IMG/VR virus record: IMGVR_UViG_3300047174_000111
Location: 32,572 to 96,571 of that record
Length of the DNA: 64,000 bases
From: a virus
Direction: 5' to 3' (one strand)
Below the pieces are notes generated by a model. The model worked only from the letters and a program-made list of their open reading frames with translations, did not search any database and was not told the DNA's origin. Both the position numbers and the translations under genes were made by a program. Positions 16,586-36,399 of the stretch are shown piece after piece. Each line of letters starts with the position of its first letter. Within the stretch, counting starts at the first letter, position 1.

Positions 16586-17016
16586 GCCATAACATCTGGA
16601 CGTGCGGGTGCGCCGACTGCGCGCCGCGCTTGAGCGACGCCATGAAGAACCTGCAGGCCTCCGTCTGCGCCTCCATCTGGGCGGCTGAGGAGGGCGCCAT
16701 CATGGGTGACGACATCGCCGAAGACGGCTTGACCTACCAAGCGCTGGTCGCCAAGGCTCCGTACAACATGGCTGATCTCGTGAAGTCGGCGAAAGAGCTG
16801 AGCGCGTTGATCAAGGATATGTACGATCCCATGGCCCTCTCCAATTTCGAGCTGCCGCTCCTGCCGACGATGGGCTTCAAGCCCGCAAGAGACGTGCCTG
16901 TCCCGCTCGACGCGTGCCGCCGCACGGCCGTCATCATCAAAACGCCGTCGCCACCGGTGACCGGCAACCGGCACGCCCGGCGCGCGGCGCTCAGTCGGAA
17001 GAACCGACATGCTTGA
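16582..17016 (+). CDS. hypothetical protein
   Basis: GTGA-coupled; CGCADC. Confidence 0.55.
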   Translation: MSHNIWTCGCADCAPRLSDAMKNLQASVCASIWAAEEGAIMGDDIAEDGLTYQALVAKAPYNMADLVKSAKELSALIKDMYDPMALSNFELPLLPTMGFKPARDVPVPLDACRRTAVIIKTPSPPVTGNRHARRAALSRKNRHA

Positions 17017-18280
17017 GCTGCTGAAGTTCGACGCCGCGAAGCACCCGCGCGACGACGCGGGCCGGTTCAGCGGCACGGCATCGGTGGCCGACGGCAAGCC
17101 GGCGCCCGTGGTGATCCGCGCCGACGGTCCGCGTTCGCTGACCCGGGGCGAGGCTTGGCAGCGCACCGGCGCCAAGATCGCGGAGCTTCCGGCGAGTTAC
17201 ACCGGCTCCCGCGACCGCGAGTTGCCGGTCGGCTCGTTCACGACCCACAAGCTGGTTCACCAGATCCCGCACGACATGGACCTGCGCGAGGACGCAGGCC
17301 TGCGCAGCCGGTTGTTCGGCATCGTGAAGCAGGAGCGCGAGGGCGCTGTGGCGAAGGGGCGGGAGCGCGGCCTGATCCCTGACGGCACCGAACCGCGGGC
17401 GATCACGCGGGCCTACAACCACGGCGCCATGCTGGCGCTGCACGACCACGGCGCGGTCGACTACGACTTCAAGATGGACGACGACCTGAAAGCGCAGATG
17501 AAGCCGATGGAGGACTTCATCCGCTACGCCCGCCGGCGCGTGAAGTCGAAGGTGCTCGGGCAGGAAAAGGGAAGCTGGAAGCCCTACCGCGCGGCGTTCG
17601 GCAAGCCGTTCAAGAACGCTAAGTTCAACAAGGAAACAGGCGAGCAGCGCCTCCGCGTCCGTCCGAACGACGTGCTGATCAAGGCCGTGCCGTCGCCACC
17701 GGTGGGGCAGTCGCCCGGCGCGACAGGTCCGCTCCAGGCCGGCCAGGTCTCGCGCTGGGACAGGATGCGCGTCACGCTGGCGCGCAGCGAGAACGCCGGC
17801 AACAGGTCGTTCAAGCCCCTCACGATGCAGCAGCGCCTGGAGCGCAAGCACGCCGCGGTCGATGAGCGGCTCAAGCTCCAGCAGGGCGGCATGCGGCTCA
17901 ACCAGGGGATGCTTGGCTCGCTCAAGGGGCTCAACATCAGCAAGCGCCCCGGGCTGCAGTCGGCCCTATCTACGGGCCCGAAGATCGATCTCGGCGCGCT
18001 GTCCCGCCCCGCAGCTCCGGCGGTTCCGGACATGACCAAGCTGGCCCCGTCGCACAAGGTCGCGCCGGCGGCGCACGACATGATGCCGGACCACCTCAAG
18101 CACATCACGGCGCCGACCAGGCGCATCGCCGCGCCGCGGCCCGTCGCTGCCATGATGCCCACGGTCAACGCCATCCTCAGCTCCAGCGCCCGCCAGCACG
18201 ATCCGCGTCCCAACCGTTTCCGCAACACCCAGGCGGTCGCCGACCACAAGGCGCCGATCGGCCACATCGGCCACGGGTGA
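17009..18280 (+). CDS. putative internal head (cargo) protein
   Basis: begins MLELLK|FDAAKHPRDDAGRF; basic; head module. Confidence 0.65.
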   Translation: MLELLKFDAAKHPRDDAGRFSGTASVADGKPAPVVIRADGPRSLTRGEAWQRTGAKIAELPASYTGSRDRELPVGSFTTHKLVHQIPHDMDLREDAGLRSRLFGIVKQEREGAVAKGRERGLIPDGTEPRAITRAYNHGAMLALHDHGAVDYDFKMDDDLKAQMKPMEDFIRYARRRVKSKVLGQEKGSWKPYRAAFGKPFKNAKFNKETGEQRLRVRPNDVLIKAVPSPPVGQSPGATGPLQAGQVSRWDRMRVTLARSENAGNRSFKPLTMQQRLERKHAAVDERLKLQQGGMRLNQGMLGSLKGLNISKRPGLQSALSTGPKIDLGALSRPAAPAVPDMTKLAPSHKVAPAAHDMMPDHLKHITAPTRRIAAPRPVAAMMPTVNAILSSSARQHDPRPNRFRNTQAVADHKAPIGHIGHG

Positions 18281-18286
18281 TCGCCG

Positions 18287-20437
18287 GTGACCGAACTAGC
18301 CAAGCACGTGCCGGGCGCGCCTCTCACCGATGCGGAGCGGCAGCAGCGGCGCGACGCGGCGCGGGCGCGGTGGGCTGCCGTCGGTGCCGGCGCTGCTGGG
18401 GCGGCGGGTGCCGCAGCGGCGCATTTCGGCACCAAGGCCGTACGTGCCTACGTACTTGGACGCATCAGGACGGCCCATGGCCCGGTCCGGGCCGAAAATG
18501 CGCGCCACGCCACCGTGACCCGCGCTCTGGCCGCGCACGAGAAGGCCGCGCTATCGGCGATCCGCAAGTGGCCCGTCCCGCCGGCGCGCGCCATGCTCCG
18601 GCACGACGTCCACACCAGACTGCGTCAGATGCGTCAGATGCCGTCCGAAGTGATGGGCGTCGATCCGGAGACCGGCGAGGATATTCACGGACCGGTCGAC
18701 CAGGAGGCGGCCGAGCGCATCGCGGGCGAGATCGAGCAGCGTCGCGCCCGCCTCGCGCAGCTGGCCGACGCCAAGCCGCCGAAGCGTCAGCCCCGCAAGG
18801 CCACGATCGCCAAAGTGCCGCGCGCCCATACCAGGGAGATCACCGTCAAGGATCGCGAGAGCGATGAGGCGCGCGCGGCCCGGCTCCGCAACCTCGATGC
18901 GCGGCACGAAGGCCTGCTCGATCAGTTCGAGCGCAACGGCGCCACGCCGGACGAGCTGGAGGAACTGCGGGGTAAGCTGGCGGCGAAGCGCGCGCTGATC
19001 GCTGCCAAGCCTGTTCGCGTGCGCGGCGCGAAGAAGACGATACCCGTTGGGTTCGAGCGTACTTCGGATGCCGCGAAGGTCAAGCGCAGGGCCACGACGG
19101 CGCGAAGGCAGGGCACGCCGGATGACAAGGCCCTGAAGCAGCTCCGCGACGAACTGCGAGACCGGGTGGCCGGCGAGATGCACCCGCGCAAGTGGTCCGA
19201 GCTGTCGCGCCACCTGACCGCGCTGGGACCGGCGCAAGACAGCTTCCGCGCCACGGCTGCGCCACTTGCCCGCTGGGCTCTCCCGACCCGCACGACACGC
19301 CGCGGCCTGATCGGGCTCGGCCTCGGGCTGAGCGCGCTGGGCGGCTACTATGCGGGCCGCGAGCTGGGCAAGTCGGCCGACCGTCTCCTGGCCGCCCCGG
19401 CTGAGCTGCTGGCGAAGGCAGCGCCCGATGGTACGACCGATGCGACCGACGCCGCTGACACGATCGCCGCGGCCGGCCTCGCGGCGCAGGAAACGATGGC
19501 TGAGCGTCTCGCCGAGACCTTCCGGCACTGGAAGGACGACGTGACGCCGACGCTCCTCGACGACGAGCCACTCAGCCTGCTCGACGCGTTTCAGACCGGA
19601 GCGGCGAACGCCTACGCGCCGATCGGCGACGCGATGCGCGCCGGGGCGGCTGCAACGGTGCCGGTCACCCAGGAGAGCGACGGCGGCCGCCAGCGCACGC
19701 TGGTGTTCAATTTGGGGCAGGTCCGCAACCCGCTGGTCGAGGCCTACATCGACCAATACCGCAAATCCAAGATCGCCGAGCTGACGGCGGAGCAGCAGGA
19801 GGCGGTGACCAACCATCTGATCGACGCTGCGCGGACCGGCGCGTCTCCAGACGAAATGGCGCGCCGCATCCGCCAGACTGTCGGCCTGACGTCCAACCAG
19901 TCCGCCCAGGTCCTCGCCTACCGGCGCGAGCTGGAGCAGCTCCAGGGCAACGCGCTGAACCGCAAGCTGCGCGACCAGCGCTATGACCGCACCGTCCTCA
20001 AGGCCATGACATCCGGCAATTCGCTCACCACGGCGCAGATCGACGCCATGGTGGATGCCTACCACCGGCGCTATCTCGCCTACCGGGCCATGACGATCGC
20101 GCGCACCGAGGGCGTGGGCGCGGCGAACAACGGGCACATGGCGGCGCTGCAGCAGACGCTCGACGCCAACCCGGACATGGAGGTGGTGAAGCGCTGGATC
20201 GCCAAGCTGGACGAGAAGACGCGGCCGGATCACCGGGTGCTGAATGGGCAGATCGTGGTGGGCTTCATGACCTCGTTCAAATGCCCAAGCGGTGACGTGA
20301 TCCGATGGCCGGGCGATCAGCAGGCGCCGGCCAGAGCGGTGATAAATTGCAGATGCACCATCGCAACGATGCTTGTGCCCAAAAAGAGCGCGGCGCAGTT
20401 TGTCGCCGACGATCCTACGAAAGGCGGCGCGACGTGA
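18287..20437 (+). CDS. MuF (gp7-like) minor head protein with long N-terminal extension
   Basis: RAMTIARTE...KRW...D.KTR.DH..LNGQ...PGD...INCRC. Confidence 0.9.
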   Translation: MTELAKHVPGAPLTDAERQQRRDAARARWAAVGAGAAGAAGAAAAHFGTKAVRAYVLGRIRTAHGPVRAENARHATVTRALAAHEKAALSAIRKWPVPPARAMLRHDVHTRLRQMRQMPSEVMGVDPETGEDIHGPVDQEAAERIAGEIEQRRARLAQLADAKPPKRQPRKATIAKVPRAHTREITVKDRESDEARAARLRNLDARHEGLLDQFERNGATPDELEELRGKLAAKRALIAAKPVRVRGAKKTIPVGFERTSDAAKVKRRATTARRQGTPDDKALKQLRDELRDRVAGEMHPRKWSELSRHLTALGPAQDSFRATAAPLARWALPTRTTRRGLIGLGLGLSALGGYYAGRELGKSADRLLAAPAELLAKAAPDGTTDATDAADTIAAAGLAAQETMAERLAETFRHWKDDVTPTLLDDEPLSLLDAFQTGAANAYAPIGDAMRAGAAATVPVTQESDGGRQRTLVFNLGQVRNPLVEAYIDQYRKSKIAELTAEQQEAVTNHLIDAARTGASPDEMARRIRQTVGLTSNQSAQVLAYRRELEQLQGNALNRKLRDQRYDRTVLKAMTSGNSLTTAQIDAMVDAYHRRYLAYRAMTIARTEGVGAANNGHMAALQQTLDANPDMEVVKRWIAKLDEKTRPDHRVLNGQIVVGFMTSFKCPSGDVIRWPGDQQAPARAVINCRCTIATMLVPKKSAAQFVADDPTKGGAT

Positions 20438-20854: not shown

Positions 20855-21303
20855 ACGACGCCGAGCGCCGCTTCTGCCACGATCTGGCCAAGGCCGTGAC
20901 CAGCTCGGGCACCTACACCTACCAGGGCGAGGCGACGGCCGGCGGGATCGGCTCGATCTTCCGCGGCTCCTCGCCGTCGCCCTGGGGGCTGCGCGCCGCG
21001 TCCCGCCTCAGTGGGCTGCGATCCAAGCATGTCGCGGGCTCGGCGCAGTCCCAGTCTCTGCTGGTCGGCCAGGCGGTGCGGGCGATCCAGCGCGGCAAAC
21101 GCACCTCGGGTCACGCGATCCGCCAGCTCGCCGCCAGCACGGCGCGCCGCGCGCCCGTGGTGTCCACGGCGGCGCCCGGGCAGGCGCTGAAGGGCTCTGG
21201 GGGGTCAGGCTATACCGGGGCGCCGGCGACGCAGCTGGGCCAGCAGCAGACCCAGGGGAACTACATCAAGCCGCCGACGCCGCCCCAGCCTCCAACGCCG
21301 TAG
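20851..21303 (+). CDS. small basic putative head protein
   Basis: AAGGAG RBS; MNDAERRFCHDLAK|A leader. Confidence 0.6.
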   Translation: MNDAERRFCHDLAKAVTSSGTYTYQGEATAGGIGSIFRGSSPSPWGLRAASRLSGLRSKHVAGSAQSQSLLVGQAVRAIQRGKRTSGHAIRQLAASTARRAPVVSTAAPGQALKGSGGSGYTGAPATQLGQQQTQGNYIKPPTPPQPPTP

Positions 21304-21311
21304 AGGTTGGA

Positions 21312-21815
21312 CTACGCGGCTCCAGGGCCGGGCGGTATGGGCATCCAGTGCGTCAGGTCGTGCACACGGAAGGTGCTATCGGCCTCGGCACAACGCTGCC
21401 GAAAATGTCCGCAGTCGTCATCATCTGACCACTGCACCCAGGCAAGCCGCGTCTCGCCGTCCCAGGCGTCGAACCACGAGCCGTCCTTGGGCGCGGTCGC
21501 GATCGGCCGCCAGCACCGCGCACCATACCGATCGAGGACCATTTCCAGCGCCTCCTCGGGCCGCTGGTCAACTGGAACCAGGACGTCACGGAACGTTGGC
21601 GGCTCGTTGCCATGACACCATGTCTTCCGGACGTACGTCTCCGTCGTGATCGAAGCTTTGACGTAGCACCAAGCCGGTTGGCCGGTCACGAGCGCAGCTG
21701 TCTCATACGTCGTGAAATAATGCGTGACTAAGCGGCGATCACGACGGATCGGCAGCGTCTCGCCGTCTTTGTGACCGCCGATGCACAGCAGGTGTTCAAC
21801 CTCGTCAGTGGCCAT
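21312..21815 (-). CDS. DUF551-like protein
   Basis: WRPIATAPKDG...THWMPIP. Confidence 0.75.
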   Translation of the reverse strand: MATDEVEHLLCIGGHKDGETLPIRRDRRLVTHYFTTYETAALVTGQPAWCYVKASITTETYVRKTWCHGNEPPTFRDVLVPVDQRPEEALEMVLDRYGARCWRPIATAPKDGSWFDAWDGETRLAWVQWSDDDDCGHFRQRCAEADSTFRVHDLTHWMPIPPGPGAA

Positions 21816-22065
21816 CGATCGCCATCCTGATCTGTCTGTAATGCTCGGGCGCGCAGTAGATGACACCGTTTTCCCGATCATAGATCGGGTCCGCCGGCTT
21901 TGTCTTGGGGACGGCCATCACGATCCAAGGGTCGATCGGCAGCCAGCGAGACAGCCACAGGATAAGCGGGTGCCCCGGGATGCGCTTCTCGGTGAAGCCG
22001 TCCAGCACGCGCGGCAGCAGATCGGTGACGCGGACCTGGATGCCGCCGAAGGGCTCGCGCGTCAT
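21805..22065 (-). CDS. hypothetical protein
   Basis: coupled within minus-strand operon. Confidence 0.55.
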   Translation of the reverse strand: MTREPFGGIQVRVTDLLPRVLDGFTEKRIPGHPLILWLSRWLPIDPWIVMAVPKTKPADPIYDRENGVIYCAPEHYRQIRMAIDGH

Positions 22066-22460
22066 GTTGCGACCTTCGCCGGCGGCTTCACGTCCTGCTT
22101 CAGCTCGCCGCACAACCCGATCTTCGGGACGTGGTGGGCGCAGATTCCGTCCTGTCCTGGCTCATACACGACGCAGGGCGAATACGGCCGGCGGTCATAG
22201 ATCCCGCATCGCCCGTCGGGCTGCAGCTCGGTGCAACGGAAGTTCCAGACCCATCCTTGTCGGGGGTCGTGTATCATGCCGATCGGAACAAACGGTAGGC
22301 CGTAGGCAATCCGGCCACCGAGCACAGCCTCTTCGTAGGGATAGTCGTCAAGCAGCGTGGTCACGCTTTCAGCGGTGGGCCAATCGAGAACGTTCAAAGT
22401 GCTGAGCGTGAAACCGCGGCAGCACCGGCCAGGATCGCGGCATGTGTCGCACGCGCTCAT
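22062..22460 (-). CDS. YkgJ/CxxCxxCC cysteine-cluster protein
   Basis: CDTC...CC...CTEL..DGRCGIYDRRP..C. Confidence 0.8.
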   Translation of the reverse strand: MSACDTCRDPGRCCRGFTLSTLNVLDWPTAESVTTLLDDYPYEEAVLGGRIAYGLPFVPIGMIHDPRQGWVWNFRCTELQPDGRCGIYDRRPYSPCVVYEPGQDGICAHHVPKIGLCGELKQDVKPPAKVAT

Positions 22461-22711
22461 GTGCCGATCTCGCAAAGCTTGCGCTTTTCGATCTCCGCCT
22501 TTTCCAATTCCTCAAGGGCATGCCGAACCTCGACAGCGACTTGGGCGCAAAATCTCAAGTCGCGGACCCCTGTGGATGACGTTGGCGCGAAATGTTTTTG
22601 CAACACCGTGAATACGGTAGCCTCTACCCTCATCGCGTGACGGTCGCTGGCCGAGAATTCCCTTTTACCCCATCCGGCGGGGCGCAGGGTGTTGGCGGTA
22701 AGATCGATCAT
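22457..22711 (-). CDS. hypothetical protein
   Basis: ATGA-coupled on both sides. Confidence 0.5.
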   Translation of the reverse strand: MIDLTANTLRPAGWGKREFSASDRHAMRVEATVFTVLQKHFAPTSSTGVRDLRFCAQVAVEVRHALEELEKAEIEKRKLCEIGT

Positions 22712-22896: not shown

Positions 22897-22986
22897 GTCG
22901 ATTTCTTCTCCAGGGTGCGCTCGAAAGGCCGAAGCATGTCAGCATACAGCTCCAGACGCGCTGCTGGAACGGGCGTTCATCAGGCC

Positions 22987-25504: not shown

Positions 25505-26578
25505 ATGACAGACGCCGAGCTCGAAGAATTCCTGCGCGCGCGTTTGGCCTCGCCACAGGATCACATGACCGCGGCGCACATCATTGGCGACCTGGTCAAG
25601 CTCGCGCCGCTGTTCGCCGATGCTGAAACGCTGCCCGGCGCGAAGGCGACGCTGGAGCGCTGGCAGGCCGAGGGCGGTGAGCTGCGCAAGGGCATCGCAA
25701 CGGCGTGGCTGGCGCGGGCGCGCGGCGCGCTGGAGGCCGGCGCGGAAAAGGCCGGGGAGCTGGGCGCGAAGGCCGGAGCGGCGATCGAGCCGCATTCCCC
25801 GGCCGGGCGGGACATGCGCGACTACGCCGGCGGCCTGAAAGGACGTCCGACCACATCGGCCGGCAAGAAGATGGAGGCGGACGCGGCCGACTACGGTCGC
25901 CGGACCGCCGATGCAGCGTCTCGGCTTCGGGCCGCCCTTCGTCCGCACGAGGAGGCGCAGCACCAAGCTGATCTGCATGCGGGACGTACGGGCCGCAGTC
26001 ACGCGACCGACGTCCGCCAGGGCCGGGCGGCCCGCGCGGACGACGAGTGGGTCAACGCCGGCGCGCGCCACTCGCGCCAGCGATCGATCGCGGCGCATCA
26101 GGATGCGTACGCCCGGATGGGCCGCACCGCGGCGAAGTTCGGGTTCAAGGCCGGCCTCGCCGTGGCAGGCGCGGGCACTGCGGCCGGCGCGGCGGCGGGG
26201 GCTCACGCCATGCTGTCCGATGCCCAGCGCAAGGAGCGCGTCTCGGCCGCCAAGGCGCGCTGGTCGCATCAGGAGAGCATGAACAAGGCGGCGGCCCGTG
26301 ATGATCTCGCGAAGCTCAATCTCGTCAGCGCGGCCCGCAATGTCGTGCGCGGCGCGCGTCTCGGGATGAAGGCCTACCGCGCGGTCGACACGCTGAAGGC
26401 CGCAGCCTCGGGTGTGGGTTCAGCCAGCGACATCGCCCGCGCCACGAGGCCGATGGACCGGCGCGCTTTCATCCAGGGCGCGGCCACTTCGGCACTGAAA
26501 TCGGCTGCGAAATCCTCATCGCTCGCGAAGCATCCGATCGCGCGCGTAGCGATAAAGGCAAGCGAGGCAATGTCATGA
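25505..26578 (+). CDS. Ala/Arg-rich putative internal head protein
   Basis: upstream of protease; DLVK|, MNK|A, DLAK| sites; Gly/Ala hydrophobic segment. Confidence 0.65.
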   Translation: MTDAELEEFLRARLASPQDHMTAAHIIGDLVKLAPLFADAETLPGAKATLERWQAEGGELRKGIATAWLARARGALEAGAEKAGELGAKAGAAIEPHSPAGRDMRDYAGGLKGRPTTSAGKKMEADAADYGRRTADAASRLRAALRPHEEAQHQADLHAGRTGRSHATDVRQGRAARADDEWVNAGARHSRQRSIAAHQDAYARMGRTAAKFGFKAGLAVAGAGTAAGAAAGAHAMLSDAQRKERVSAAKARWSHQESMNKAAARDDLAKLNLVSAARNVVRGARLGMKAYRAVDTLKAAASGVGSASDIARATRPMDRRAFIQGAATSALKSAAKSSSLAKHPIARVAIKASEAMS

Positions 26579-28131
26579 CCCTCTTGAACGCCGCGGCCGC
26601 GCCGCGCACGCTGGTCATTCCGTTGACCAAGATCGACGTCGAGAAGCGCCTCGTCTACGGCGTGGCGGCGGCCGAAATCCGCGACCAGGCCGGCGAGGTG
26701 ATGGATTACGCCTCCGCCAAGCCCGCCTTCGCGAGCTGGTCCAAGTCGTTCGAGGACGCCACCGGCGGCCTGTCAAAGGGCAACCTGCGGGAGATGCACA
26801 ATCCCAAGATGGTCGCCGGCCGGCTCGACCAGCTCGGGTTCGACGATGACGGCAAGCGCATCGAGGTCTGCGCCAAGGTCACCGATGACCAGGCTTGGAA
26901 GAAGTGCCTGGACGGCTGCTACACCGGATTCTCGGTTGGTGGCGGCTACGGCCCAAAGTGGACCGACGACGCCGGCAACAAGCGCTACACGCCGATCGTC
27001 CGCGAGTTGTCGCTTGTGGACAATCCCTGCATCCCGACGGCGCGGTTCGCCGAGCTGGTCAAGGCGCACGGCGTGGTGGAGCAGCTGGAGCTGCGCGGCT
27101 CGCCCCTCACCACGTTCGCCACGGCGTGGGCCGCGCGGCCGCGCACCTTCGCGGAGCAATGGGACGGAAGGCTGCGGAGCTTCGGCGATCTGCACAAGGC
27201 ATGGGACGAGAGCAAGCATCCGCGCGACCATGGCAAATTCGCGAGTGAAGGAGGTTCAAGCGATCGCGACGACGACTATGAGGCGCGACGCTGGCGCGCG
27301 GGCATTATCGGCGGCGTTCTCGGGACAGTTGCGCTGCCTGTACCTTTCCTCGGCACCTATGCTGGCTATAGGCTTGGGCGTGCACTTGTCAGCCGCGGGC
27401 CGGCCGCAGGCCACACCCAGCAAGACTTCGACGATATCGCCCAGCTGGAGGAAATTTCGCGCCAAGAGGATGCTGCCACGGCGCGACGCTACATGCAGGG
27501 GCAGACAGCCCGCGAGCCACGTCCCCAGCAACACAATCCTGGCGGTCAAGCCAGATATCGCGAGCGTCCGCTTCCGCCCAACTCCAGGGCCCAGAACGCA
27601 ACCCGGCTCAGCGGCAAACAACTTGCCGTGCCGGTGACGAGAGCGCACCCAGTGCAGACGCAGGCCAGCATGCCGGGTCGGCGACTTCCGCCGAACGACG
27701 AGGGCCACGAAGACGGCGCTCCGTTCCGTGCCTCGACCGGCGCGCGCGGTCCGATGGCGGCGCAGATGCCTCGAACGCAGCAGCACGACACGGGGCAATC
27801 CGCCTCGAATCCTGCGCGTCCGCTGCCGCGCAACGATCTTGGGAAGAACTGGGCCGGATGGCTGGGCGCACAGGCTGTGTCAACTGTCGTGCCGGGCACG
27901 ACAACGCTCGGGGTTTACCGGAGCTTCGGGGGTGGAAAGGGACGCAATCCCTCTCGGCGTATCAAACAGCCGAAGGCGCCGGCAGCTCAAACCGATACCT
28001 CAGCCCCTCCTGCAGACACAAGCGGCGGCACCGACCAGCAGCGCGCGGGCTACCAGAGGTTCCAGCAGACGCAGCGTTCTGTTCGGAGCGCCTTCGGTAT
28101 GCGCACGAAGGGGTGGGGCGCGCCATCGTGA
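26575..28131 (+). CDS. XkdF/HK97-type prohead protease with C-terminal cargo extension
   Basis: KID.EKRLVYG...NLREMH...YTGFSVGG...ELSLVDNP; ~330 extra residues follow. Confidence 0.85.
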   Translation: MTLLNAAAAPRTLVIPLTKIDVEKRLVYGVAAAEIRDQAGEVMDYASAKPAFASWSKSFEDATGGLSKGNLREMHNPKMVAGRLDQLGFDDDGKRIEVCAKVTDDQAWKKCLDGCYTGFSVGGGYGPKWTDDAGNKRYTPIVRELSLVDNPCIPTARFAELVKAHGVVEQLELRGSPLTTFATAWAARPRTFAEQWDGRLRSFGDLHKAWDESKHPRDHGKFASEGGSSDRDDDYEARRWRAGIIGGVLGTVALPVPFLGTYAGYRLGRALVSRGPAAGHTQQDFDDIAQLEEISRQEDAATARRYMQGQTAREPRPQQHNPGGQARYRERPLPPNSRAQNATRLSGKQLAVPVTRAHPVQTQASMPGRRLPPNDEGHEDGAPFRASTGARGPMAAQMPRTQQHDTGQSASNPARPLPRNDLGKNWAGWLGAQAVSTVVPGTTTLGVYRSFGGGKGRNPSRRIKQPKAPAAQTDTSAPPADTSGGTDQQRAGYQRFQQTQRSVRSAFGMRTKGWGAPS

Positions 28132-28154: not shown

Positions 28155-31100
28155 ATGCCGCGTCCTCACTTCGACGCCACGCTGATCGGTGAGCTGCGCA
28201 ACCGCGTGGTCGCGCACAACCAGCGCACGCCCTCCGCACTGGCCAAGCTCGGCCATGTGAAGCGCATCTACGAGAAGGCCTACAGCGGCCCGACGCCGCA
28301 CGAGCGCGCGCTGGCCAAAGTCGATGCCCACCTGAATGACCTGGCCAAGGCCGGAGAGTTCGACGATGCAGAGCATCCGCGCGGCGCCCACGGTCGCTTC
28401 TCTCGCACCGCTGCGGCCAAGCCGGGCGTCTCCATCCCGCTGCCGGCGACGCAGGATGAGCATCAGAAACTCCAGCAGACGAACGCAGGCTATCGCGCGC
28501 TGACCACGGATCTGCTCCCGACGCGCCACAACGAGATCATCGGCGGCGTCGTCCGCGATGTCGGTTCCGCGGCGGCTGGAGGCCTTCTCGTTGCCGGCCT
28601 GCTGCGCGGTCGTCCCGGCGGCGCAGTGCGGCGCGGCGCGCGCTGGATCGGCGGCATGGCAGGGAAATATGGCCTCGGTATTCCCGTCTCTCTGACAGCG
28701 CATGGGCTGACAGCCGGCGCGGGCGTCACGCGCGCCGCGATCGCACGCGGTCGGGGCAGGCCTGCACCACCTGATCCGAGCCACGACCTGGCGGCACGGA
28801 TCAGCGAATGGTTCGGCGCTCATGGTCAGCGGATCGGTGCCGCAACGGCCGACCTCAGCATGGGCGCCGCTTCAGCTGCGGCGCGGGCCGCGGTTCACGT
28901 CGCCGGCTCGACAGCGCGAACTCCCGGACAAGCGCGCCTCCGCCGCGTCGGCGCCGCGGCTGCGCTGGCAGCGGTTCCAGCGCTGGCGATCCGAAGCAAG
29001 ATCGAGGACACGCAATTGGACCCCGCCGTCATCGGCCGCAACATCGACGCCTACTCGTATCGCTCGGTCCAGAAACTGGCCGGGGACCCAAACGCCGAGG
29101 ATCTGCTCAAGGCGAGCTTCCTGCGATATCCCTATGTCGGCGGCGTGGCGCGCGCGGTCCGCACCGGCGCCGCTGCGGTGGGCGGAGCCGCGGCCGGCGC
29201 ACTGGCAGGCTTTGGGATTCACGCCGCGACGGGTGCCGGCGATCACGCGCGGGGCAACCCCAACCACGACGCGCGCGGCAGGTTCACGTCGCGTGACGCC
29301 GCCGTCTCGGGGGGCGCGCTTCTGGGCGGCGCTGCGGCCGGGCTGGGCGTCTATGCGGCGCTGCGAAGCCACAACACCGCCCAGCTAAGCCGCGCTCTGG
29401 CGAGGAGCAGCACCAAGCTGGCCCGCAAGCTGGCGGCGGTTCGGTCGGAAACCGGCATCGGCTCAGTGCCGAAAATGATCGCGGAACGGGACGCGCGTGT
29501 TCGCGAGATGATGGACGAGGAGCCCTTTGCTTCTCGGCTCAAGGACGCGGGTGCCAGCCTGCAGGAGCCGTCGGGAGAGTTCCGGGTGGTCAATGCCAAG
29601 GCGTACACCCGGGCGAAGGTAAACGACCACCTTGCCTCCAAGCTGAGCCAGATCGACGAGTTTGCAATCCCCAATGAGGTGAGCGGCGCGTCGAAGTCGA
29701 TGCGCGACCTGCGCGCCAAGGCTCGGACCCACGTCGATCCGGACATTGTCGCAAAACAGAAGGTCCTCGAATTCGTCGCTTCGGCCACGCCGAAGGAATT
29801 CCACGACGCGCTGGCGACCGTGCCGGACGAAAAGGTGCGCCAGGAGATCGGCTCGATCTTCGATAAGCGTCAGGAATGGATCAACGCCGTCGATGACCAA
29901 ATCGCCGCCCATCATGAAGCCATTGCGCAAGCCGAAGCCGAAGTCAAAAAAACGAGCCAGAGAGCGGCGGACGCGCAGGTCGCAGCAGACAAAGCGAGCG
30001 CCGCTCACGAAGCCGCCGAAGGAAAAGCCAAAGCAGCGGCCAAGAAGCGCTTCGACGCCGCCGATAAGGCTTTCGACGACGCCGACGAGGCTCACCAAAC
30101 CGCCATCAGCCGTCTGGACGATCTGAAGAAGCAGCCGACCGGCGTGAGGTTGCCCAAGGAGCTGGGCGGCGCCGCCGTCCCGAAGCCGTCCCGCGAAGCG
30201 ACGGAGCGGAGCCGATCGTCGATCATTGAGGCCGTACGGAGCGACGCCCGGAAGAAGGCCGACAAGGAGATCGCTGATGCGCGCGATGCGCAGGAGCGCG
30301 ACATCGTTCATCGGCACAGCCGCGCGGTGGCCGCGCATACACACATGACGCACTCCTCCGGCGCCGCGGTACCCGACCAGGCCGCGGCCGAGGCGCGCGC
30401 CGTCGCGGCAGCCTCGGTCGCGCATGAGCAGGCCCGCGACGCGCTGAACACGGCGCACCGCAACCTGATCGAGACGCAGCAGCGTCACGACGCCCACGTC
30501 TCGATCACGCCGCTGCCGAGCCAGCGCAAGGACCACACCGCCGCGACGAAGGCCCTCAAGGCGCAGATCAAGCAGCACCAGGCCGATCTGAAAGCCGCCC
30601 ATGCCGCGGTCAGCACGACAAGCGCGGATGTGACCGGCGCTGTGCAGGCGATGGAGCGCCAGATGCGCGTCGCCGCGGCGTCGACGGGCGGACCACGCCT
30701 GCCCCGCCAGATGATCGGCGATCTGAGGCTTGAAGTGATGCGCGCGGCGCGCGCCGCAGCCTCGCCGGTGGATGCTTTCATCCGGTCACCCTCAGCGGCG
30801 GCCTTGAAGCAGTTCGCCTCGTCGGCGATCGGCCTCGCCGGCGCAACCGCCGCTGCGACCGGGGAAGGCATCAAGGAGACCGCGAAGAAAGCATTCCTGA
30901 CAGAGGACGGGTCAGCGCTGCATCCCGGCAAGGCGATCGCCTCTATCGGCGTGGCCACGGCCGCGACCGACGCGATCCTGGACCACGGCGCGCATATCCG
31001 CCGGGCCCTGTTCGGCTCCGACGAGGAGAAAGAGTCGGCCAAGCCGCTCAAGGCCCCCAAGGGGTTCCGGACCGAACACAAGGTGCATCCCATCACCGGC

Positions 31101-33188
31101 GCGGGCTATATCGCGGTCCACGCGCCCGACCCCGACAACAAGGGCGAGCGTCTGGTGGTTTACGGCGAGCACTACAAGAACGATGGGTCGACGACACCTC
31201 TCCGCGCCGGTTCGACGCTATCGGATGTGCGTCGCGCGGTTGCCGATTATGAACAGAAATACCAGCAGCAGCGCCCGCAGAACCAGAACGCGCCCAGCAG
31301 CAGCACGATCGGGGGCGCGACGAGCGGCCCGCGCGAGCTGCGTGATGCGCAGAACCTGGAGCCGAACCGCAAGGCCCTGATCGACAAGACCGTGGCCGCG
31401 CTCAAGGGCACGCAGGGCGGCCTGCAGACGCTGCGCGCTGGGCAGGACGGGCCAGAGATGCAGTTCCGTGGCGACGGATCGAACGACAAGGAGCACAACG
31501 ACGCGGCGGGCCAGTTCGTCGCGCATCTCCGCGACAAGCATCTCGCGTCCGGCGCGCCCCAGGGACAGGCGGTTCACAAGGCGCTCGACACGCTGTTCTC
31601 CAATGAAGGCCGCGTCCTGACCCGCAAGCAGGCGTTCGCCCAGCTGACCGGCTACACCAAAGAGGGTCAGGACCGGAACAAGCCGTCGATCCTGACGAAG
31701 CGGCCCGGGTTCGGATCGGCCGACAAAGCCGAGGTCGGCGCCGCGCTGAACGCCGAGATCGACCGCATCGTCAAGGACGCGGCGCCCAGGGATGACCGAG
31801 AGAAGGGCGCACTGCATCTCGCTGCATCGGTGATCGGCGTAGAGAAGCAGCTTCCCGACGACGTGATGCAGGCGGTCCACGCCAAGATCCGCGGCTCAAC
31901 GCCGACGACGGGTCCGGCCGAGACGGCGGGGGCAAGCAGCTCCGGCATCGCGGCGCCCAAGGCGCAGCCAGCCGGGCCGATCGCGAAGGAGCCGGACAGC
32001 ACCGACCCGGACAAGCTGGTCGAGAACGAGAACCCGCCGCATTTCGTGGCGAGCCAGCTTCGTGATTACGCGGAGGGTGAGGCGCGCGCGCTGCGCACCG
32101 ATCTGCGCCTGCGTCAGGCTGACCAGGCGGAAATCCTCATCCCGGCGATCGAGCATCTCGCGCGCGTCGTGGGCCACAGCCATGGGCTGGACGAGCAGAC
32201 CGCAGCGCGGGTCGCGGCGGACACGTTCCGCGCCACGGCCGCGGGCGGGGACTGGAACCGCGTTATGACGGCCGATGAGATCGCGAAGGGCAACCTGAAC
32301 ACGTTCCGCTACACGCTGCGGCGCAAGGCTGACGCCGAGAAGCTGAAGATGGAGGCCAACAAGTCCGCCGGGGCTGTGCCGCTCGGTAAGCTGCTCGACG
32401 ATCTCGACGCGCTGGCCAAGGCGTTCGACGGTGGAGATTTCAATCCAGATTTGCACCCACGGTTGGCCGCTGGTGAGCAGGGAGGTGGCGAGTTTGCTCC
32501 AAAGGGCGGTCATGGCGCTGGGGGTTTGGCGGGGCGGATCAGACAAGGGGCTGTCGAGGGATCGACCGATATCGTTGACAAGCAGGCCGCAGCTGCTGCG
32601 CGTGGCACCAGCCGCAAGGCGGTGCCGTGGTACAGTCCCGGCCGCGCAATCCCCGATGCCGGCAATGCGCTTGGAGGTGCATTCGCCTATGCCGGCGCCG
32701 AGAAGGCGATGCAGATCGCCGAGCGCTTCCTGCCGGCACCCTTGCGCACGGCCGCCGAGGTTGCGAGCGCGCCGGGATTGGTGGGCGGCGTCAAGGCGGC
32801 GCTCGGATTGGGCTTCAAGGGCGCCATCAAAGAGGGCGCGAAGGCAGCCGCGAAAACAGGGTTGGTCGGCGGTGCATCCGTCGCCGGCGGAACGCTGGGC
32901 GCCTTAGTAGGCACGAAACTGGTCGGCCACGAAGCGCCCGCCCCCGCCTACCACGACTCAGGCGAGGCGTTGGCCGAGAGCGCCGGGTCGCTCGCCGGCA
33001 GTTTCGCCGGCAGCGCCGCCGCGCTCGTGCCGGGCCCCGGCTGGCTAGTGGCGCCGACGCTCAGTGCCGCCGGCAGCTACGCGGGCGGTTTGGTGGCGCG
33101 CGGCGCGTACGACTGGTTCAAGGGCTACGACCAGAAGACCGTCGCGCGCGTCGCGCGCCGTTACGCCAAGCCTGCGACCAACCCATGA
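28155..33188 (+). CDS. 1677-aa putative internal virion polyprotein
   Basis: between protease and scaffold; three HPR/HD..G[RE]F peptides, LxK|A sites, glycine zippers, coiled coils. Confidence 0.75.
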   Translation: MPRPHFDATLIGELRNRVVAHNQRTPSALAKLGHVKRIYEKAYSGPTPHERALAKVDAHLNDLAKAGEFDDAEHPRGAHGRFSRTAAAKPGVSIPLPATQDEHQKLQQTNAGYRALTTDLLPTRHNEIIGGVVRDVGSAAAGGLLVAGLLRGRPGGAVRRGARWIGGMAGKYGLGIPVSLTAHGLTAGAGVTRAAIARGRGRPAPPDPSHDLAARISEWFGAHGQRIGAATADLSMGAASAAARAAVHVAGSTARTPGQARLRRVGAAAALAAVPALAIRSKIEDTQLDPAVIGRNIDAYSYRSVQKLAGDPNAEDLLKASFLRYPYVGGVARAVRTGAAAVGGAAAGALAGFGIHAATGAGDHARGNPNHDARGRFTSRDAAVSGGALLGGAAAGLGVYAALRSHNTAQLSRALARSSTKLARKLAAVRSETGIGSVPKMIAERDARVREMMDEEPFASRLKDAGASLQEPSGEFRVVNAKAYTRAKVNDHLASKLSQIDEFAIPNEVSGASKSMRDLRAKARTHVDPDIVAKQKVLEFVASATPKEFHDALATVPDEKVRQEIGSIFDKRQEWINAVDDQIAAHHEAIAQAEAEVKKTSQRAADAQVAADKASAAHEAAEGKAKAAAKKRFDAADKAFDDADEAHQTAISRLDDLKKQPTGVRLPKELGGAAVPKPSREATERSRSSIIEAVRSDARKKADKEIADARDAQERDIVHRHSRAVAAHTHMTHSSGAAVPDQAAAEARAVAAASVAHEQARDALNTAHRNLIETQQRHDAHVSITPLPSQRKDHTAATKALKAQIKQHQADLKAAHAAVSTTSADVTGAVQAMERQMRVAAASTGGPRLPRQMIGDLRLEVMRAARAAASPVDAFIRSPSAAALKQFASSAIGLAGATAAATGEGIKETAKKAFLTEDGSALHPGKAIASIGVATAATDAILDHGAHIRRALFGSDEEKESAKPLKAPKGFRTEHKVHPITGAGYIAVHAPDPDNKGERLVVYGEHYKNDGSTTPLRAGSTLSDVRRAVADYEQKYQQQRPQNQNAPSSSTIGGATSGPRELRDAQNLEPNRKALIDKTVAALKGTQGGLQTLRAGQDGPEMQFRGDGSNDKEHNDAAGQFVAHLRDKHLASGAPQGQAVHKALDTLFSNEGRVLTRKQAFAQLTGYTKEGQDRNKPSILTKRPGFGSADKAEVGAALNAEIDRIVKDAAPRDDREKGALHLAASVIGVEKQLPDDVMQAVHAKIRGSTPTTGPAETAGASSSGIAAPKAQPAGPIAKEPDSTDPDKLVENENPPHFVASQLRDYAEGEARALRTDLRLRQADQAEILIPAIEHLARVVGHSHGLDEQTAARVAADTFRATAAGGDWNRVMTADEIAKGNLNTFRYTLRRKADAEKLKMEANKSAGAVPLGKLLDDLDALAKAFDGGDFNPDLHPRLAAGEQGGGEFAPKGGHGAGGLAGRIRQGAVEGSTDIVDKQAAAAARGTSRKAVPWYSPGRAIPDAGNALGGAFAYAGAEKAMQIAERFLPAPLRTAAEVASAPGLVGGVKAALGLGFKGAIKEGAKAAAKTGLVGGASVAGGTLGALVGTKLVGHEAPAPAYHDSGEALAESAGSLAGSFAGSAAALVPGPGWLVAPTLSAAGSYAGGLVARGAYDWFKGYDQKTVARVARRYAKPATNP

Positions 33189-34729
33189 GCGACAGCGCCG
33201 GCAGCGCGCCGACCTTCACCGAGTCCGCGAATCCCACCGCGGGGCTGCAGCCCTATGACATCGAGCGTGGGACCAAGAACCTCTATCCAGGCCCGCGTGT
33301 CGGGCGCTTCCGGCACGCCGGCAAGCGCAGGCGCGGCCACATGCGCAAAGGAACAGACATGGACGCCATCGAGGCGATGGTCGGCACGCTCTCGACCAGC
33401 GTTGCAGACCTGATCCGAGCCAACCCGCCGAACATCGACGAGCTGCTCGAAAAGAATTTCGGCGAGTTCAAGGCCGTCCTGACAGACCAGATCGGCAACA
33501 ACGTCGCTGAGCAGATCGAGCTTGCCAAGGCCGATATGCCGATCCTCGAGGAACCACTCTACAAGGGCCTTGGCTGCGTCGGCCGCGTCGCGAACCTCGT
33601 GTCGTCCATCGTCTCCCAGGTCCAGGCGCTTCGCGAGGGGGGCGACTACTACAGGCGCGACGACGACAAGGACCCGGCCAGCGAAGACGTCGCCACGATG
33701 CTGGATCACCTCGTCGATCTCGCCACGCTGACCCTGCGCGCCGCCGTCAACGAGCACGTCGGCGTGGCCGATGACGACGACATGGAAAATCCGCCCGACG
33801 GCATGCATCTGATCCTGCTGCCAACGGCCGAGGATCCCGACAACGAGGATGATGGCGTGGTTGTGAAGACAGCGCTGCCGGAGGACTTGGCCAAGTTCGC
33901 GCTCGACCCGGGCCTGATCGGCCAGGGCATCGTCCAGATCGGCGCCGGGCTGATGCTCGACGGCGGAGTGCCGGAGCAGACGCTGTCCAAGCTGTTCGAG
34001 ATCGACTCCGACCCCCTGCGGAAGAACTTCCCGCCCAAGAAACCGGCCGCGTCAGGTTCGTCCGGCAGCAATGCGCCGGCCGATCCCTCGATCGATCCTG
34101 GCGCGTCCACCGGCTCGGCCGCGCCGCCGGATGACTCCGGCGATGGTATGGACGATGCCGGCAGCGACGACGGCTCGGGCGACAACCCGCTCACCGTGCT
34201 GGGCCGCATTCTCGCCGCCGCGATGATCCAGCTGGACCACATCCAGCAAATCGTCGACGGCCCCGATGCGGACGACGGTCAGGACATGGACGACGGTTCG
34301 GAGCAGGACAGCGCGGGCAATCCGACCATGGCGATGGGCAACCCGTCGATGGGCAAGTCGGTTCAGCAGGGCGGTCTGTCCAAGGCCGCTTCGGCGGCCG
34401 CTTCGCCTCCCGCGGCCCCCGCGCAGCAGCCGCTGGTCGACGATCTCCAGAAGCAGGTCAACGACCTCAAAGGCCAGCTCGCCAAGCTGCTGGCGCAACC
34501 GGCGCCGCCCAAGGGCATCGCCAACCCGGTCGTGCTGAGCAAGACGCTCGACACCGGCGGCATGCCGCCCAGCGAGGAGGCGGAGCTGCAGAAACTGGCC
34601 GCTCAGATCGACCGTCTCCCGGTCGAGCAACGCCAAGCGGCGATGGCTCAGGAGCTGATCAAGATGCAGCTTCGCAAACCGCAGCCCGCGACCGGCGCCG
34701 GTGCGCTGAGCGGCACCATCGCGCGCTGA
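33185..34729 (+). CDS. acidic scaffold-like head protein (alternative start 33359)
   Basis: Asp-rich, C-terminal coiled coil + QPAPPKG, directly upstream of capsid gene. Confidence 0.7.
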   Translation: MSDSAGSAPTFTESANPTAGLQPYDIERGTKNLYPGPRVGRFRHAGKRRRGHMRKGTDMDAIEAMVGTLSTSVADLIRANPPNIDELLEKNFGEFKAVLTDQIGNNVAEQIELAKADMPILEEPLYKGLGCVGRVANLVSSIVSQVQALREGGDYYRRDDDKDPASEDVATMLDHLVDLATLTLRAAVNEHVGVADDDDMENPPDGMHLILLPTAEDPDNEDDGVVVKTALPEDLAKFALDPGLIGQGIVQIGAGLMLDGGVPEQTLSKLFEIDSDPLRKNFPPKKPAASGSSGSNAPADPSIDPGASTGSAAPPDDSGDGMDDAGSDDGSGDNPLTVLGRILAAAMIQLDHIQQIVDGPDADDGQDMDDGSEQDSAGNPTMAMGNPSMGKSVQQGGLSKAASAAASPPAAPAQQPLVDDLQKQVNDLKGQLAKLLAQPAPPKGIANPVVLSKTLDTGGMPPSEEAELQKLAAQIDRLPVEQRQAAMAQELIKMQLRKPQPATGAGALSGTIAR

Positions 34730-34893
34730 TTTTTCTGAAATGACGTGTTGACAGGGGGACTGAACCACCGGCCGTCCCCCTGTCGTGGACCGAAAACACA
34801 TCGGGACCACATCGCGCCGACCACCTGACCGCCGGTTGCGCAGCCGGCCATGGCCCCAAACCGCCGCTGGGCCGCGGCTGCGCTGACGACACG

Positions 34894-36399
34894 GTGAACA
34901 ACGTGGATACTTCCGCGACGCTCGACATCCTGCGGGAAGCTCTTGCCAAAGCCGCCGATCCGGTGGAACTTGCCAAGGCGGCGACCTTCGTCCAATCGGT
35001 CACGCCGACCGTCGGTCTGCAGCTCTATGACCTCGAACCGGCCGCGAAGAATCTCTACCCGGTCCTGACGCCGCTGCGGAATCGCATCCCGCGCGTCTCG
35101 GGCAAGGGAGGATCGCAGGCGAACTGGAAGGGCGTCACCGGCATCGACACCGGCTCCATCTTCGCCGGTGTGACCGAAGGCCGACGTGGCGCACTCATCT
35201 CCGTTGCGACGAAGGAATACTTCGCCGCGTATCGGACGATCGGCTCCGAGGCGTCGGTCACCTTCGAGGCCGATCTGGCCGCGGGCGATTTCGACAATCT
35301 GCGCAGCCGCGCCTCGATGTCGAACCTGCAAGCGCTGATGATCGCCGAGGAGAAGATCATCCTCAGCGGCAACACGACGTATCAGCTCGGCCAGACCCCA
35401 ACGCCCGTCTGCGTCGCGGCCAACACCGGCGGAGCACTCGCGGCGAGCACCACCTTCTCGGTCATCTGCGTCGCCCTGACCACGCTGGGCAAGGCGACGG
35501 CAACCGTGGCGACCGGCGTGGTCGGCGTGACGACCCGTCAGACAGCCGACGGTTTCACCGATACGTACAATGGCGGCTCGGCCATCAAGAGCGCCAACGG
35601 CACGGTCGCGACCGCCGCTGGGACCGCGACCAACTCCGTCGCGGCCGCGGTCACGCCCGTCCGCGGCGCGTTCGCCTACGCTTGGTTCTGGGGCGCGGTC
35701 GGCTCCGAGGTGCTGGGCGCGATCACCAACGTCGCCAACTACACCATCACGGGTGCTGCGACGGGCACACAGACGGCCGCGTCGCTGCCGGCGCTGGACT
35801 GCTCGACCAACTCGCTGGTGTTCGATGGCCTGCTGTCGATCGCATCGGGCTCGACGAACGGCGGCTACTACTATGCGGCGGCTCCGGGTGCCGGCCTCAC
35901 GCCGGACAACTCGGGCGGCATCATCGAGTTCGACACGGCGCTGCAGTGGTTCTGGGACAATCTGCGTCTCGCCCCGAGCCGCATCATCCTGTCGAGCCAG
36001 GAGATGACGTGGATCCGCCGCGCCATCCTGACCGGCAACGCCGCGACGCCGTCGAACGCCCGCTTCACGTTCTCGATGCAGCAGGGTCAGATCGTCGGCG
36101 GTGGTGCGCCCAAGGGCTACATCAACACCTTTGCCGCGGGCGGGGCGCCGGCCGAGATCCCGTTCGAGCTGCATCCCTACATGCCGCCCGGCAACGTCCT
36201 CTTCCTGACCGAGGACCTGCCCTACCCGATGAACAACGTCACGAACGTGATGCAGATCAAGGCGCGGCGCGACTATTACCAGATTGACTGGCCCCAGATC
36301 ACGCGCCAGTACCAGTACGGCGTCTACTCGGACGAAGTGCTGCAGCACTACTTCCCGCCGAGCATGGGGCTCATCACCAACCTGTCGCCCGTTCTGTAG
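34894..36399 (+). CDS. major capsid protein
   Basis: propeptide LAKA..LAKA; YDLE..AK.LYP..TPLRNRIPR; C-terminal RRDYYQIDWP...Y..GVY..EVL..Y.P..G.ITN; position. Confidence 0.85.
   Translation: MNNVDTSATLDILREALAKAADPVELAKAATFVQSVTPTVGLQLYDLEPAAKNLYPVLTPLRNRIPRVSGKGGSQANWKGVTGIDTGSIFAGVTEGRRGALISVATKEYFAAYRTIGSEASVTFEADLAAGDFDNLRSRASMSNLQALMIAEEKIILSGNTTYQLGQTPTPVCVAANTGGALAASTTFSVICVALTTLGKATATVATGVVGVTTRQTADGFTDTYNGGSAIKSANGTVATAAGTATNSVAAAVTPVRGAFAYAWFWGAVGSEVLGAITNVANYTITGAATGTQTAASLPALDCSTNSLVFDGLLSIASGSTNGGYYYAAAPGAGLTPDNSGGIIEFDTALQWFWDNLRLAPSRIILSSQEMTWIRRAILTGNAATPSNARFTFSMQQGQIVGGGAPKGYINTFAAGGAPAEIPFELHPYMPPGNVLFLTEDLPYPMNNVTNVMQIKARRDYYQIDWPQITRQYQYGVYSDEVLQHYFPPSMGLITNLSPVL

Follow-up and report, generated by a model that had tools for sequence, protein, structure and literature searches.

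Do the head genes of a tailed phage encode precursors that are cut after lysine by the prohead protease, and does a peptide that follows some of the cuts mark proteins destined for the interior of the capsid? The question is raised by the head module of a phage with a 97-kb genome (96.6 kb; IMG/VR record IMGVR_UViG_3300047174_000111), of which a stretch of 64 kb (bases 32572-96571), called the window below, was analysed; coordinates are those of the window unless another locus is named. An earlier reading of the same DNA, referred to here as the original prediction, had proposed that a hydrophobic-x-Lys site recurs in the head proteins and that four of these sites are followed by one shared peptide, the HPR..GRF tag. 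To our knowledge, the selection of head-carried or injected proteins is understood for few model phages: through the capsid targeting sequence (CTS) of T4, the Dar proteins of P1 and the ejection proteins of P22. The best explanation of the present data as a whole, to which we assign a probability of about 0.6, is that a protease with a predicted gp21 fold cuts after Lys and would thereby expose a retained N-terminal cargo tag.

Lysine sites in the head proteins

L-x-K sites were counted in eight head proteins encoded between 17009 and 36399, and expected counts were obtained from per-protein shuffles. The control set comprised 8610 amino acids (aa) of other open reading frames (ORFs) of the window (terminase, portal, tail and early genes). 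The head proteins contain 40 copies of LxK against 18.3 expected (z 5.5) and 19 copies of [DE]LxK against 2.1 expected (z 12), a number reached in 0 of 1000 shuffles; the recurrence of the hydrophobic-x-Lys site across the head-module proteins is borne out by these counts. The control ORFs have 16 LxK (expected 17.7) and 3 [DE]LxK (expected 1.8). Comparing head with tail ORFs had been named beforehand as a check, and the outcome was enrichment in the former and a frequency at expectation in the 8610 aa of other ORFs.

In scans that made no prior choice of pattern, LxK came out at the top of 400 a-x-b patterns, and ELxK and DLxK ranked first and second among 8000 a-b-x-c patterns (p about 3e-7 and 5e-7). 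The excess of LxK is due mainly to the scaffold, the protease tail, gp25505 (the product of the gene at 25505) and the capsid propeptide; observed and expected numbers are 13 and 2.0 for the scaffold, 5 and 1.4 for the protease ORF, 4 and 1.5 for gp25505, and 3 and 0.8 for the capsid protein. [DE]LxK is in excess also without the scaffold (14 observed, 1.7 expected) and in the cargo proteins taken alone (10 against 1.5, z 7.1). No enrichment in the head proteins was seen for [DE]LxR (2 copies), for LxE or for the reversed pattern. Since [DE]LxR was found just twice, the LxK excess is not a helix salt-bridge effect, and with the other two controls helix salt bridges and composition were ruled out as its source.

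Conservation of the sites in relatives

Related phages were represented by 21 IMG/VR loci retrieved with the protease domain of the window; six near-duplicates were left out of the counts. In the protease-to-capsid ORFs of the remaining loci LxK occurs 171 times against 85 expected (z 9.9), as compared with 32 against 35 after the capsid and 42 against 34.5 before the protease. Inspection of relatives, also proposed beforehand, thus showed the excess to be confined to the protease-to-capsid ORFs. The Lys of LxK was kept as Lys in 59% of the orthologue comparisons, other Lys residues in 19% (p 6e-11; the orthologues are about 30% identical), and the sites in the scaffold are positionally conserved.

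Most relatives, like Brevundimonas phage Polewnik, encode a protease-scaffold fusion followed by the capsid protein and have no tag. These tag-free relatives still keep LxK↓A (arrows mark the predicted cut) at the end of the protease domain, across the scaffold and at the N-terminus of the capsid protein, where the double site is conserved in the relatives and in Polewnik. In the simpler relatives (L001, at 18049-19830, and L007-L021) the fusion of protease and scaffold is one protein of 330-600 aa. In the window (26575-34729) and in L004, L005 and L022 a giant gene lies between the protease and scaffold halves, as if cargo had been inserted into the protease-scaffold linker.

The window-like subgroup consists of L003 (partial), L004/L006, L005 and L022, all with an ORF of 1627-1752 aa between the protease and a separate scaffold. 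The homologues of the giant protein in L004, L005 and L022 are colinear with it (1627-1752 aa, 27-33% identity), and the predicted cut sites are conserved. Within the subgroup, LxK followed by an HPR tag is present at the N-terminus of the giant protein in 5/5, LxK about 45 residues before GNP(N/Y)(H/R)D..G(R/K)F in 5/5, and LxK↓AFD near the C-terminus in 3/4.

The prohead protease

The gene at 26575, located between portal and capsid, encodes the GFSVGG motif quoted in the original prediction. The candidate catalytic residues His75 and Ser120 (in GFSxGG) are invariant in 12 sequences of 51-68% identity; the relatives also keep a SLVDNPCIPTA block, and the protease domain ends at a conserved ELVK↓A, whose K163 is nearly invariant in the 12 sequences. 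The AlphaFold2 (AF2) model of the protease (predicted local distance difference test, pLDDT, 77) had T4 gp21 (5JBL) as its top Foldseek match (E 7.5e-4, prob 1.0), followed by herpesvirus assemblins (the proteases of human cytomegalovirus and Epstein-Barr virus), with modest TM scores (0.44). No Pfam or NCBIfam family, the Pfam HK97-type protease families included, was matched at E<=0.01. Judged by its modelled fold, the 26575 product probably belongs with the serine proteases of the T4 gp21/HK97/assemblin type.

The HK97 capsid sequence contains FNK↓S as well as LMK, LTK and LIK in the delta domain, and we take the HK97 cleavage to be after K103. T4 gp21 cuts after Glu in I/L-x-E (bioRxiv 10.64898/2026.03.04.709575). 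By analogy, L-x-K is a plausible specificity for this protease fold, with P3 as in gp21 and P1 as in HK97.

The notion that the LxK sites behave like prohead protease sites is supported, and they are likely to be cleavage sites, because the enrichment is found only in head-interior proteins, both here and in the relatives, because the Lys is conserved among orthologues, because one site marks the end of the protease domain and another the junction of the capsid propeptide, and because the modelled fold of the enzyme is that of gp21 and the assemblins, with I/L-x-E, the site of gp21, being analogous.

The tag in the head module

The tag has the form (F/W/Y)-(D/E)-x-x-x-H-P-R-x(2-3)-G-(R/K)-F, within a peptide of 14-25 residues. 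All motifs and tags quoted in the original prediction are present where it had placed them (17027, 27199, 28350, 32421 and 29253; Table 1). A six-frame scan of the window found HPR-x(2-9)-G-x-F in frame four times, only in head ORFs, and a six-frame scan of the 96.6-kb genome revealed no further HPR-type tag beyond the head-module ORFs. As had been claimed for four sites, the shared peptide follows LxK in 4/4 cases, at a distance of 0-6 residues. An LxK ends 0-6 residues upstream of 5.7% of the positions in these proteins, which gives about 1e-5 for 4/4 by chance. In the relatives 15/15 HPR-type tags (about six independent positions) lie 0-6 residues after LxK, and L004 has two site-plus-tag units at the position of the protease-extension tag of the window. 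The site before tag copy 4 is kept in 3/4 homologues (one has RR), and the tag itself is degenerate or lost in some.

The tag in other phage proteins

A tag profile of 32 positions, built from 12 copies, was searched against 1.84 billion proteins and matched 1149 cluster representatives at E<=1e-3, 136 of them at E<=1e-10. The carriers contain ART-PolyVal, InPase, GNAT, ADP-ribosyl exotoxin, Zeta toxin, PBECR3, NUDIX and LPD3 domains and, among head-related domains, MuF, Portal_Mu, Peptidase_S78_2 and DUF2213; they are the polyvalent and head-associated proteins treated by Iyer et al. 2017. Similar peptides in other phage head genes had been mentioned in the original prediction. The highest copy number was 20, in a protein of 7334 aa. 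The tag is followed by a Gly-rich linker, and in 34/141 carriers it lies within 40 residues of the protein's own start, in some at residue 4.

The consensus of the residues before the tag, taken from 440 copies, is L(-4) A(-3) K(-2) D/E/A(-1), and [LIVMF]xK precedes 114/440 tags as against 25.5 +/- 5.3 at random positions. Other lineages have AAG↓D, LSL↓ or RYA↓ before the tag. The agreement of the four residues upstream of the tag was 0.315 within a protein and 0.125 between proteins. The carriers P0010 (2533 aa) and P0012 (2025 aa) open with a protease domain from the same family as the one in the window (E 3e-54 and 6e-25), which is followed by five or six tagged modules; 4/6 and 5/5 of their tags, respectively, come after hF(D/N)DLxK, directly or three residues on. 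To judge from their sequences, P0010 and P0012 are single-ORF protease-plus-cargo polyproteins.

The tag is not covered by any Pfam or NCBIfam model, and its motif strings were not found in the searched literature, Iyer et al. 2017 (PMC5512222) having no mention of it. Searches for related loci in viral contigs with P0003 and P0140 (AAG↓D class), and in genome contigs with P0003, returned single-domain relatives without tags, or nothing; a tblastn search of cultured phages with a multi-tag ART protein gave matches via the ART domain only. An exact DNA pattern for WDExKHPRDxxGRF identified 15 IMG/VR loci, in which most tags also come after x-x-K. In the loci examined in detail among these 15 (L034-L037) no protease or capsid was found. 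One of them, L034 (IMG/VR_UViG_3300001213_000218), from an unrelated phage with a different residue pattern before the tag, has a row of at least four adjacent genes at 7823-11535 (minus strand), each product having the tag or a variant near its N-terminus (FEAE↓WDE.KHPRD, FYSE(D/E)Q.RDE.GRW). By its distribution the tag is a real and widespread short motif that stands alone and is found at the head of modules in head-linked and polyvalent effector proteins of many unrelated phages.

Proposed processing and its alternatives

From the statistics, the conservation, the fold and the tag distribution described above we infer cleavage, presence of the proteins in heads and binding by the tag in the following way. 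A protease co-assembled in the procapsid would cut (D/E)-L-x-K↓ after Lys, as the basic-P1 counterpart of the I/L-x-E specificity of gp21. The cuts would remove the 28-residue capsid propeptide, free the protease domain from its C-terminal extension, break the acidic scaffold into small peptides and separate the MuF domain from the N-terminal half of its protein. The basic internal proteins (gp17009, gp25505 and the 1677-aa giant) would be divided into few large pieces, the giant protein being predicted to be cut after K65, K319 and K1422. At four module starts the cut would leave the tag 0-6 residues from the new N-terminus. The tag, exposed by upstream cleavage or by a native N-terminus, would be a retained N-terminal handle of capsid-internal cargo, serving procapsid loading and possibly exit with the DNA.

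It is probable that the tag marks head cargo and works at the N-terminus; a specific loading function is a more tentative proposal. Loading is suggested because the protease must enter the procapsid and, in this subgroup, has the tag in place of the lost fusion to the scaffold, and because each stand-alone tagged gene would need an entry signal of its own. A role after cleavage, in ejection or action in the host, is suggested because there is one tag per module and because phages with unrelated shell sequences have kept the motif. In its widest and rather speculative form the proposal would be that in tailed phages HPR..GRF serves generally as the N-terminal handle of cargo inside the capsid, native or exposed by the prohead protease of the lineage, and that the cargo is loaded and delivered with the DNA. 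Two other functions were considered and dropped: exposure of an N-degron, the new N-termini being mostly Ala and not Phe, Leu, Trp or Tyr, and an AT-hook or twin-arginine motif, with no match in form.

Several observations weigh against a Lys-specific protease that exposes cargo tags. Most LxK sites have no tag, just 4 or 5 of about 40 being followed by one; the GNP..GRF variant has no adjacent LxK, and the same is true of one tag variant in L022. The N-terminal 'propeptides' MLELLK and VTELAK, of just 5-8 residues, are unusually short, and the LxK in them could belong to an extended motif and not be a cut site. Plain LxK is not enriched when only the cargo proteins are considered (19 observed, 13.7 expected). 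The agreement of the tag flanks within a protein could partly stem from internal duplication. Relatives with the same protease, scaffold and capsid carry no tags at all; therefore the tag is dispensable for head assembly. The giant protein has no effector or enzyme domain recognisable in family, homologue and fold searches, and no PDB sequence or solved structure contains the tag. The original prediction, that the head genes are polyproteins cut after Lys into tagged modules, stands to the extent that the sites behave like cleavage sites and that a tag is always near a site. It has to be narrowed in that the MuF protein, gp20851, gp25505 and the scaffold have sites and no tag, and in that the giant protein probably has three conserved cuts and is not minced into many modules.

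One alternative accepts the LxK sites as real and sees in the tag a docking or boundary element on the P' side, which aids cleavage of the junction or stops trimming of the N-terminus. This fits the position of the tag, always within 0-6 residues of the P1 Lys, the Gly-rich linker after it, which would make it an exposed linear motif, and the existence of protease-tag fusions. However, the junctions of the capsid, the scaffold, the MuF protein and the protease domain have the site without the tag, tag-free relatives appear to process with the same site type, and many carriers start with the tag natively, with nothing upstream to cut. We consider such a docking role unlikely.

Similarly low odds are given to a tag that acts after injection by binding DNA or a conserved host component, the cut sites merely freeing effector modules. 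A universal partner, DNA or a host protein, would suit the conservation of the motif across phages with unrelated capsid and scaffold sequences; moreover, carriers are effector enzymes and the cargo proteins of the window are basic. Against this, the tag is also carried by prohead protease, portal and MuF proteins, whose place of action is the head, not the host. We know of no host-binding motif that resembles the tag, and literature searches yielded nothing on the point.

Less probable still is that the cargo is not cut at the tags, LxK plus tag being a duplicated hinge or linker motif, with the LxK excess coming from processing of the scaffold and the propeptide only. The count of plain LxK in the cargo proteins, the 5-8-residue upstream segments and the flank similarity within proteins, which could arise by duplication, can all be read in this way. 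They are opposed by the ten copies of [DE]LxK in the cargo proteins where 1.5 are expected, by the positional conservation of untagged cargo sites at about 30% identity, and by the fact that the residues upstream of the tag vary by lineage, yet the same LxK recurs here at the capsid and protease junctions. Finally, chance or the composition of Ala/Leu/Lys-rich helical proteins, for which it could be said that the head proteins are Ala-rich and partly coiled-coil, is refuted by the z of 12 in per-protein shuffles, the lack of enrichment of LxR, LxE and the reversed pattern, the first places in the unbiased scans, the conservation in relatives and the 1149 matches of the profile.

Comparison with known systems

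The proposed cleavage and tagging resemble the T4 system in the gp21-fold protease, in a three-residue site with Leu/Ile at P3 that recurs in capsid, scaffold and internal proteins, in a scaffold degraded at many sites, and in internal cargo encoded in the head module; they differ in having Lys at P1 where T4 has Glu. In T4 the cut in the internal proteins IPI-III and Alt comes after the CTS, which is thereby lost from the mature protein (PMC10052503). In contrast, the peptide shared by the proteins described here is C-terminal to LxK (4/4 in the window, 15/15 in relatives) and would be retained, and it is conserved across very distant phages, which the T4 CTS is not.

Giant phages (SPN3US gp245, phiKZ gp175, 201phi2-1; A/S/G-x-E) likewise use cuts at a short motif in many head and ejection proteins. 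SPN3US gp245 cuts 14 sites in nine head proteins, and the prohead protease cuts itself on the C-terminal side, as would be the case here (PMC10052503). Their cuts, however, take long propeptides (20-254 residues) off the N-terminus, a retained tag in common has not been reported, and they are jumbo myoviruses whereas the present phage is a 97-kb siphovirus. HK97 gp4/gp5 share with the window the Lys at P1, several hydrophobic-x-K sequences in the delta domain and the order portal, protease, capsid; unlike the window, HK97 lacks a separate scaffold, internal cargo and a tag.

A short linear peptide with a Gly-rich tether that marks unrelated proteins for the interior of an HK97-fold shell is known from the cargo-loading peptides of encapsulins. 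This is an analogy only, as these peptides have no sequence similarity to the tag.

Polyvalent proteins were proposed by Iyer, Burroughs, Anand, de Souza and Aravind in 2017 (PMC5512222) to be packaged in the head and proteolytically processed. The same tag separates modules with ART-PolyVal, InPase, PBECR3, LPD3, MuF and Zeta-toxin domains, and the genes described here lie between portal and capsid. The differences are that the paper stresses zincin-like metallopeptidases as the processing enzymes (PMC5512222), and that the giant protein and gp17009 lack a multi-enzyme architecture, having no Pfam, PHROG or NCBIfam domain.

The processing and packaging of polyvalent proteins are still conjecture, and the window offers a clean case: its sequence alone lets one recognise a single protease family, a single type of site (D/E-L-x-K) and a single retained peptide. 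If the tag is a cargo handle, the capsid cargo of uncultured phages would become predictable from sequence and there would be a simple route to put chosen proteins into phage heads; a portable cassette of protease site, tag, Gly linker and payload would then explain the architecture of polyvalent proteins. Whatever the role of the tag, the predicted Lys-P1 specificity of a gp21-fold protease is testable, and it helps to annotate the mature products of the capsid, scaffold and MuF genes in these phages.

Head proteins and genomic context

The features of the head module are listed in Table 1. The plus-strand ORFs under discussion are all backed by frame-specific GC content at third codon positions (GC3), the signal being weaker over the protease tail (27000-28100), where the extension has an uncharged Gly-rich hydrophobic stretch at aa 240-265.

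Table 1. Positions of the head-module features in the window
Feature	Position	Strand	Remarks
Large terminase	9452-11146		
Portal	12668-15469		
gp17009, basic cargo protein, 423 aa	17009..18280	+	GC3 0.92
Tag copy 1	17027..17068	+	FDAAKHPRDDAGRF; directly after MLELLK↓
MuF protein, 716 aa	18287..20437	+	PF04233 E 3.9e-12; phrog_3517 E 1e-61
gp20851, basic protein, 150 aa	20851..21303	+	coding-frame GC3 signal; DLAK↓A at aa 14
gp25505, basic protein, 357 aa	25505..26578	+	four LxK sites: DLVK↓L, ELRK↓G, DLAK↓L, SLAK↓H; Gly/Ala hydrophobic stretch
Prohead protease domain (aa 1-163)	26575..27063	+	phrog_9427 'head maturation protease' E 5.5e-13
Protease His75 (candidate)	26797-26799	+	
Protease Ser120 (candidate)	26932-26934	+	
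Protease C-terminal extension	27064..28131	+	DLHK↓ (27190-27198), tag copy 2, DLGK↓N at aa 424
Tag copy 2	27199-27240	+	AWDESKHPRDHGKF; after DLHK↓
Giant basic protein, 1677 aa	28155..33188	+	between protease and scaffold
Tag copy 3	28350..28400	+	AGEFDDAEHPRGAHGRF; directly after DLAK↓; conserved in 5/5 homologues
Tag variant GNPNHDARGRF	29253..29285	+	followed by Gly/Ala hydrophobic stretch (aa 381-405); motif kept in four full-length homologues
Tag copy 4, long form	32421..32495	+	AFDGGDFNPDLHPR...GGEF; directly after ALAK↓
Acidic scaffold, 514 aa	33185..34729	+	13 LxK sites; 80 D+E vs 45 K+R
Capsid propeptide (aa 1-28)	34894..34977	+	EALAK↓A and VELAK↓A
Predicted mature major capsid protein	34978..36399	+	phrog_13692 E 2.7e-127
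Head-tail adaptor	after capsid		
Tape measure protein, 1551 aa	after capsid		
J-type central fibre	after capsid		

gp17009 has the N-terminal site MLELLK↓ (17018-17026) and VLIK↓A at 17675-17683. Its orthologues in L005 and L022 retain both sites, the second being followed in L022 by a tag variant; a similarity search with gp17009 for a function gave nothing usable. The Pfam match of the MuF protein (47.3 bits, gathering cut-off 29.6) covers residues 572-692. Of its sites, ELAK↓H is at aa 6; the other, LLAK↓AAPD at aa 377 (19409-19417), is conserved, being kept in L005 and L022, and separates the MuF domain from the basic N-terminal half, which has a Gly/Ala stretch. No family match was obtained for gp20851 in Pfam and PHROG scans. 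In the gp25505 homologues of L004, L022 and L002 ELRK is conserved and DLVK partly so.

In the giant protein the conserved DLLK↓A at 29103-29111 lies about 45 aa upstream of GNPNHDARGRF, and its LxK is kept in five homologues. The giant proteins of the IMG/VR loci are the sole homologues that were found for the giant protein; a homologue search with its central part matched only the protein itself, and the AF2 model of the central domain was poor (pLDDT 57) and gave no fold match. The start of the scaffold gene was corrected to 33185, where the stop of the giant ORF and the scaffold start overlap in ATGA (33185-33188). In L005 such an ATGA overlap is present at both the protease/giant and the giant/scaffold junctions, and this arrangement suggests translational coupling. 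Residues 8-35 of the scaffold copy the N-arm of the predicted mature capsid protein over its first 28 residues (33206-33289 and 34978-35061; 17/28 identical, 61%, E 3e-11). The scaffolds of L004, L005 and L022 have the same N-arm copy, starting M-S-(G)-ATF; none was seen in the fused protease-scaffolds of simpler relatives. The copy is possibly a mimic by which the scaffold attaches to the capsid protein.

A basic character is common to gp17009, the N-terminal half of the MuF protein, gp20851, gp25505, the protease tail and the giant protein, whereas the scaffold is acidic. All these basic parts except gp17009 and gp20851 contain Gly/Ala-rich uncharged hydrophobic stretches, often 20-30 residues after a tag; examples are aa 240-265 of the protease and aa 381-405 and 1568-1587 of the giant protein. 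Glycine-zipper-like hydrophobic stretches were noted at 27292-27369, 29295-29369, 32856-32915 and elsewhere. With these features the basic head proteins resemble internal or ejection proteins, which may be membrane-active, more than they do enzyme-rich polyvalent proteins.

By its gene content the window is the late region of a lambda-like siphovirus, with the head-module order terminase, portal, MuF, protease, scaffold and capsid, followed by the tape measure protein and the J-type central fibre. The closest named phages are Brevundimonas phages Polewnik and Strzyga (capsid identity 48%, the value found for Polewnik); in tblastn searches the capsid also matched annotated capsid proteins of Arthrobacter phages. 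The head module is split by an island of lower GC content (0.61-0.62) at about 21300-25500, which contains a gene for a 370-aa TnpB-type transposase (23553-24665; phrog_506 and phrog_12300) and several small ORFs without a family match.

The portal gene has an insert of 339 residues (13475-14491, portal aa 270-608) that begins with CYSDD and ends with WSGN before a Thr. It has LAGLIDADG-like motifs, no Pfam family was found in it, and once it is taken out the residues on either side match the Polewnik portal, which has no interruption (QLNYF-TEGTIPEAL); it is probably an intein with a homing endonuclease. In the relative L002 (IMG/VR, 3-2519) a MuF homologue has a large insert within the conserved NCRC motif (VVNC ... 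HN/CRCS), which suggests that the head genes of these phages contain a second intein.

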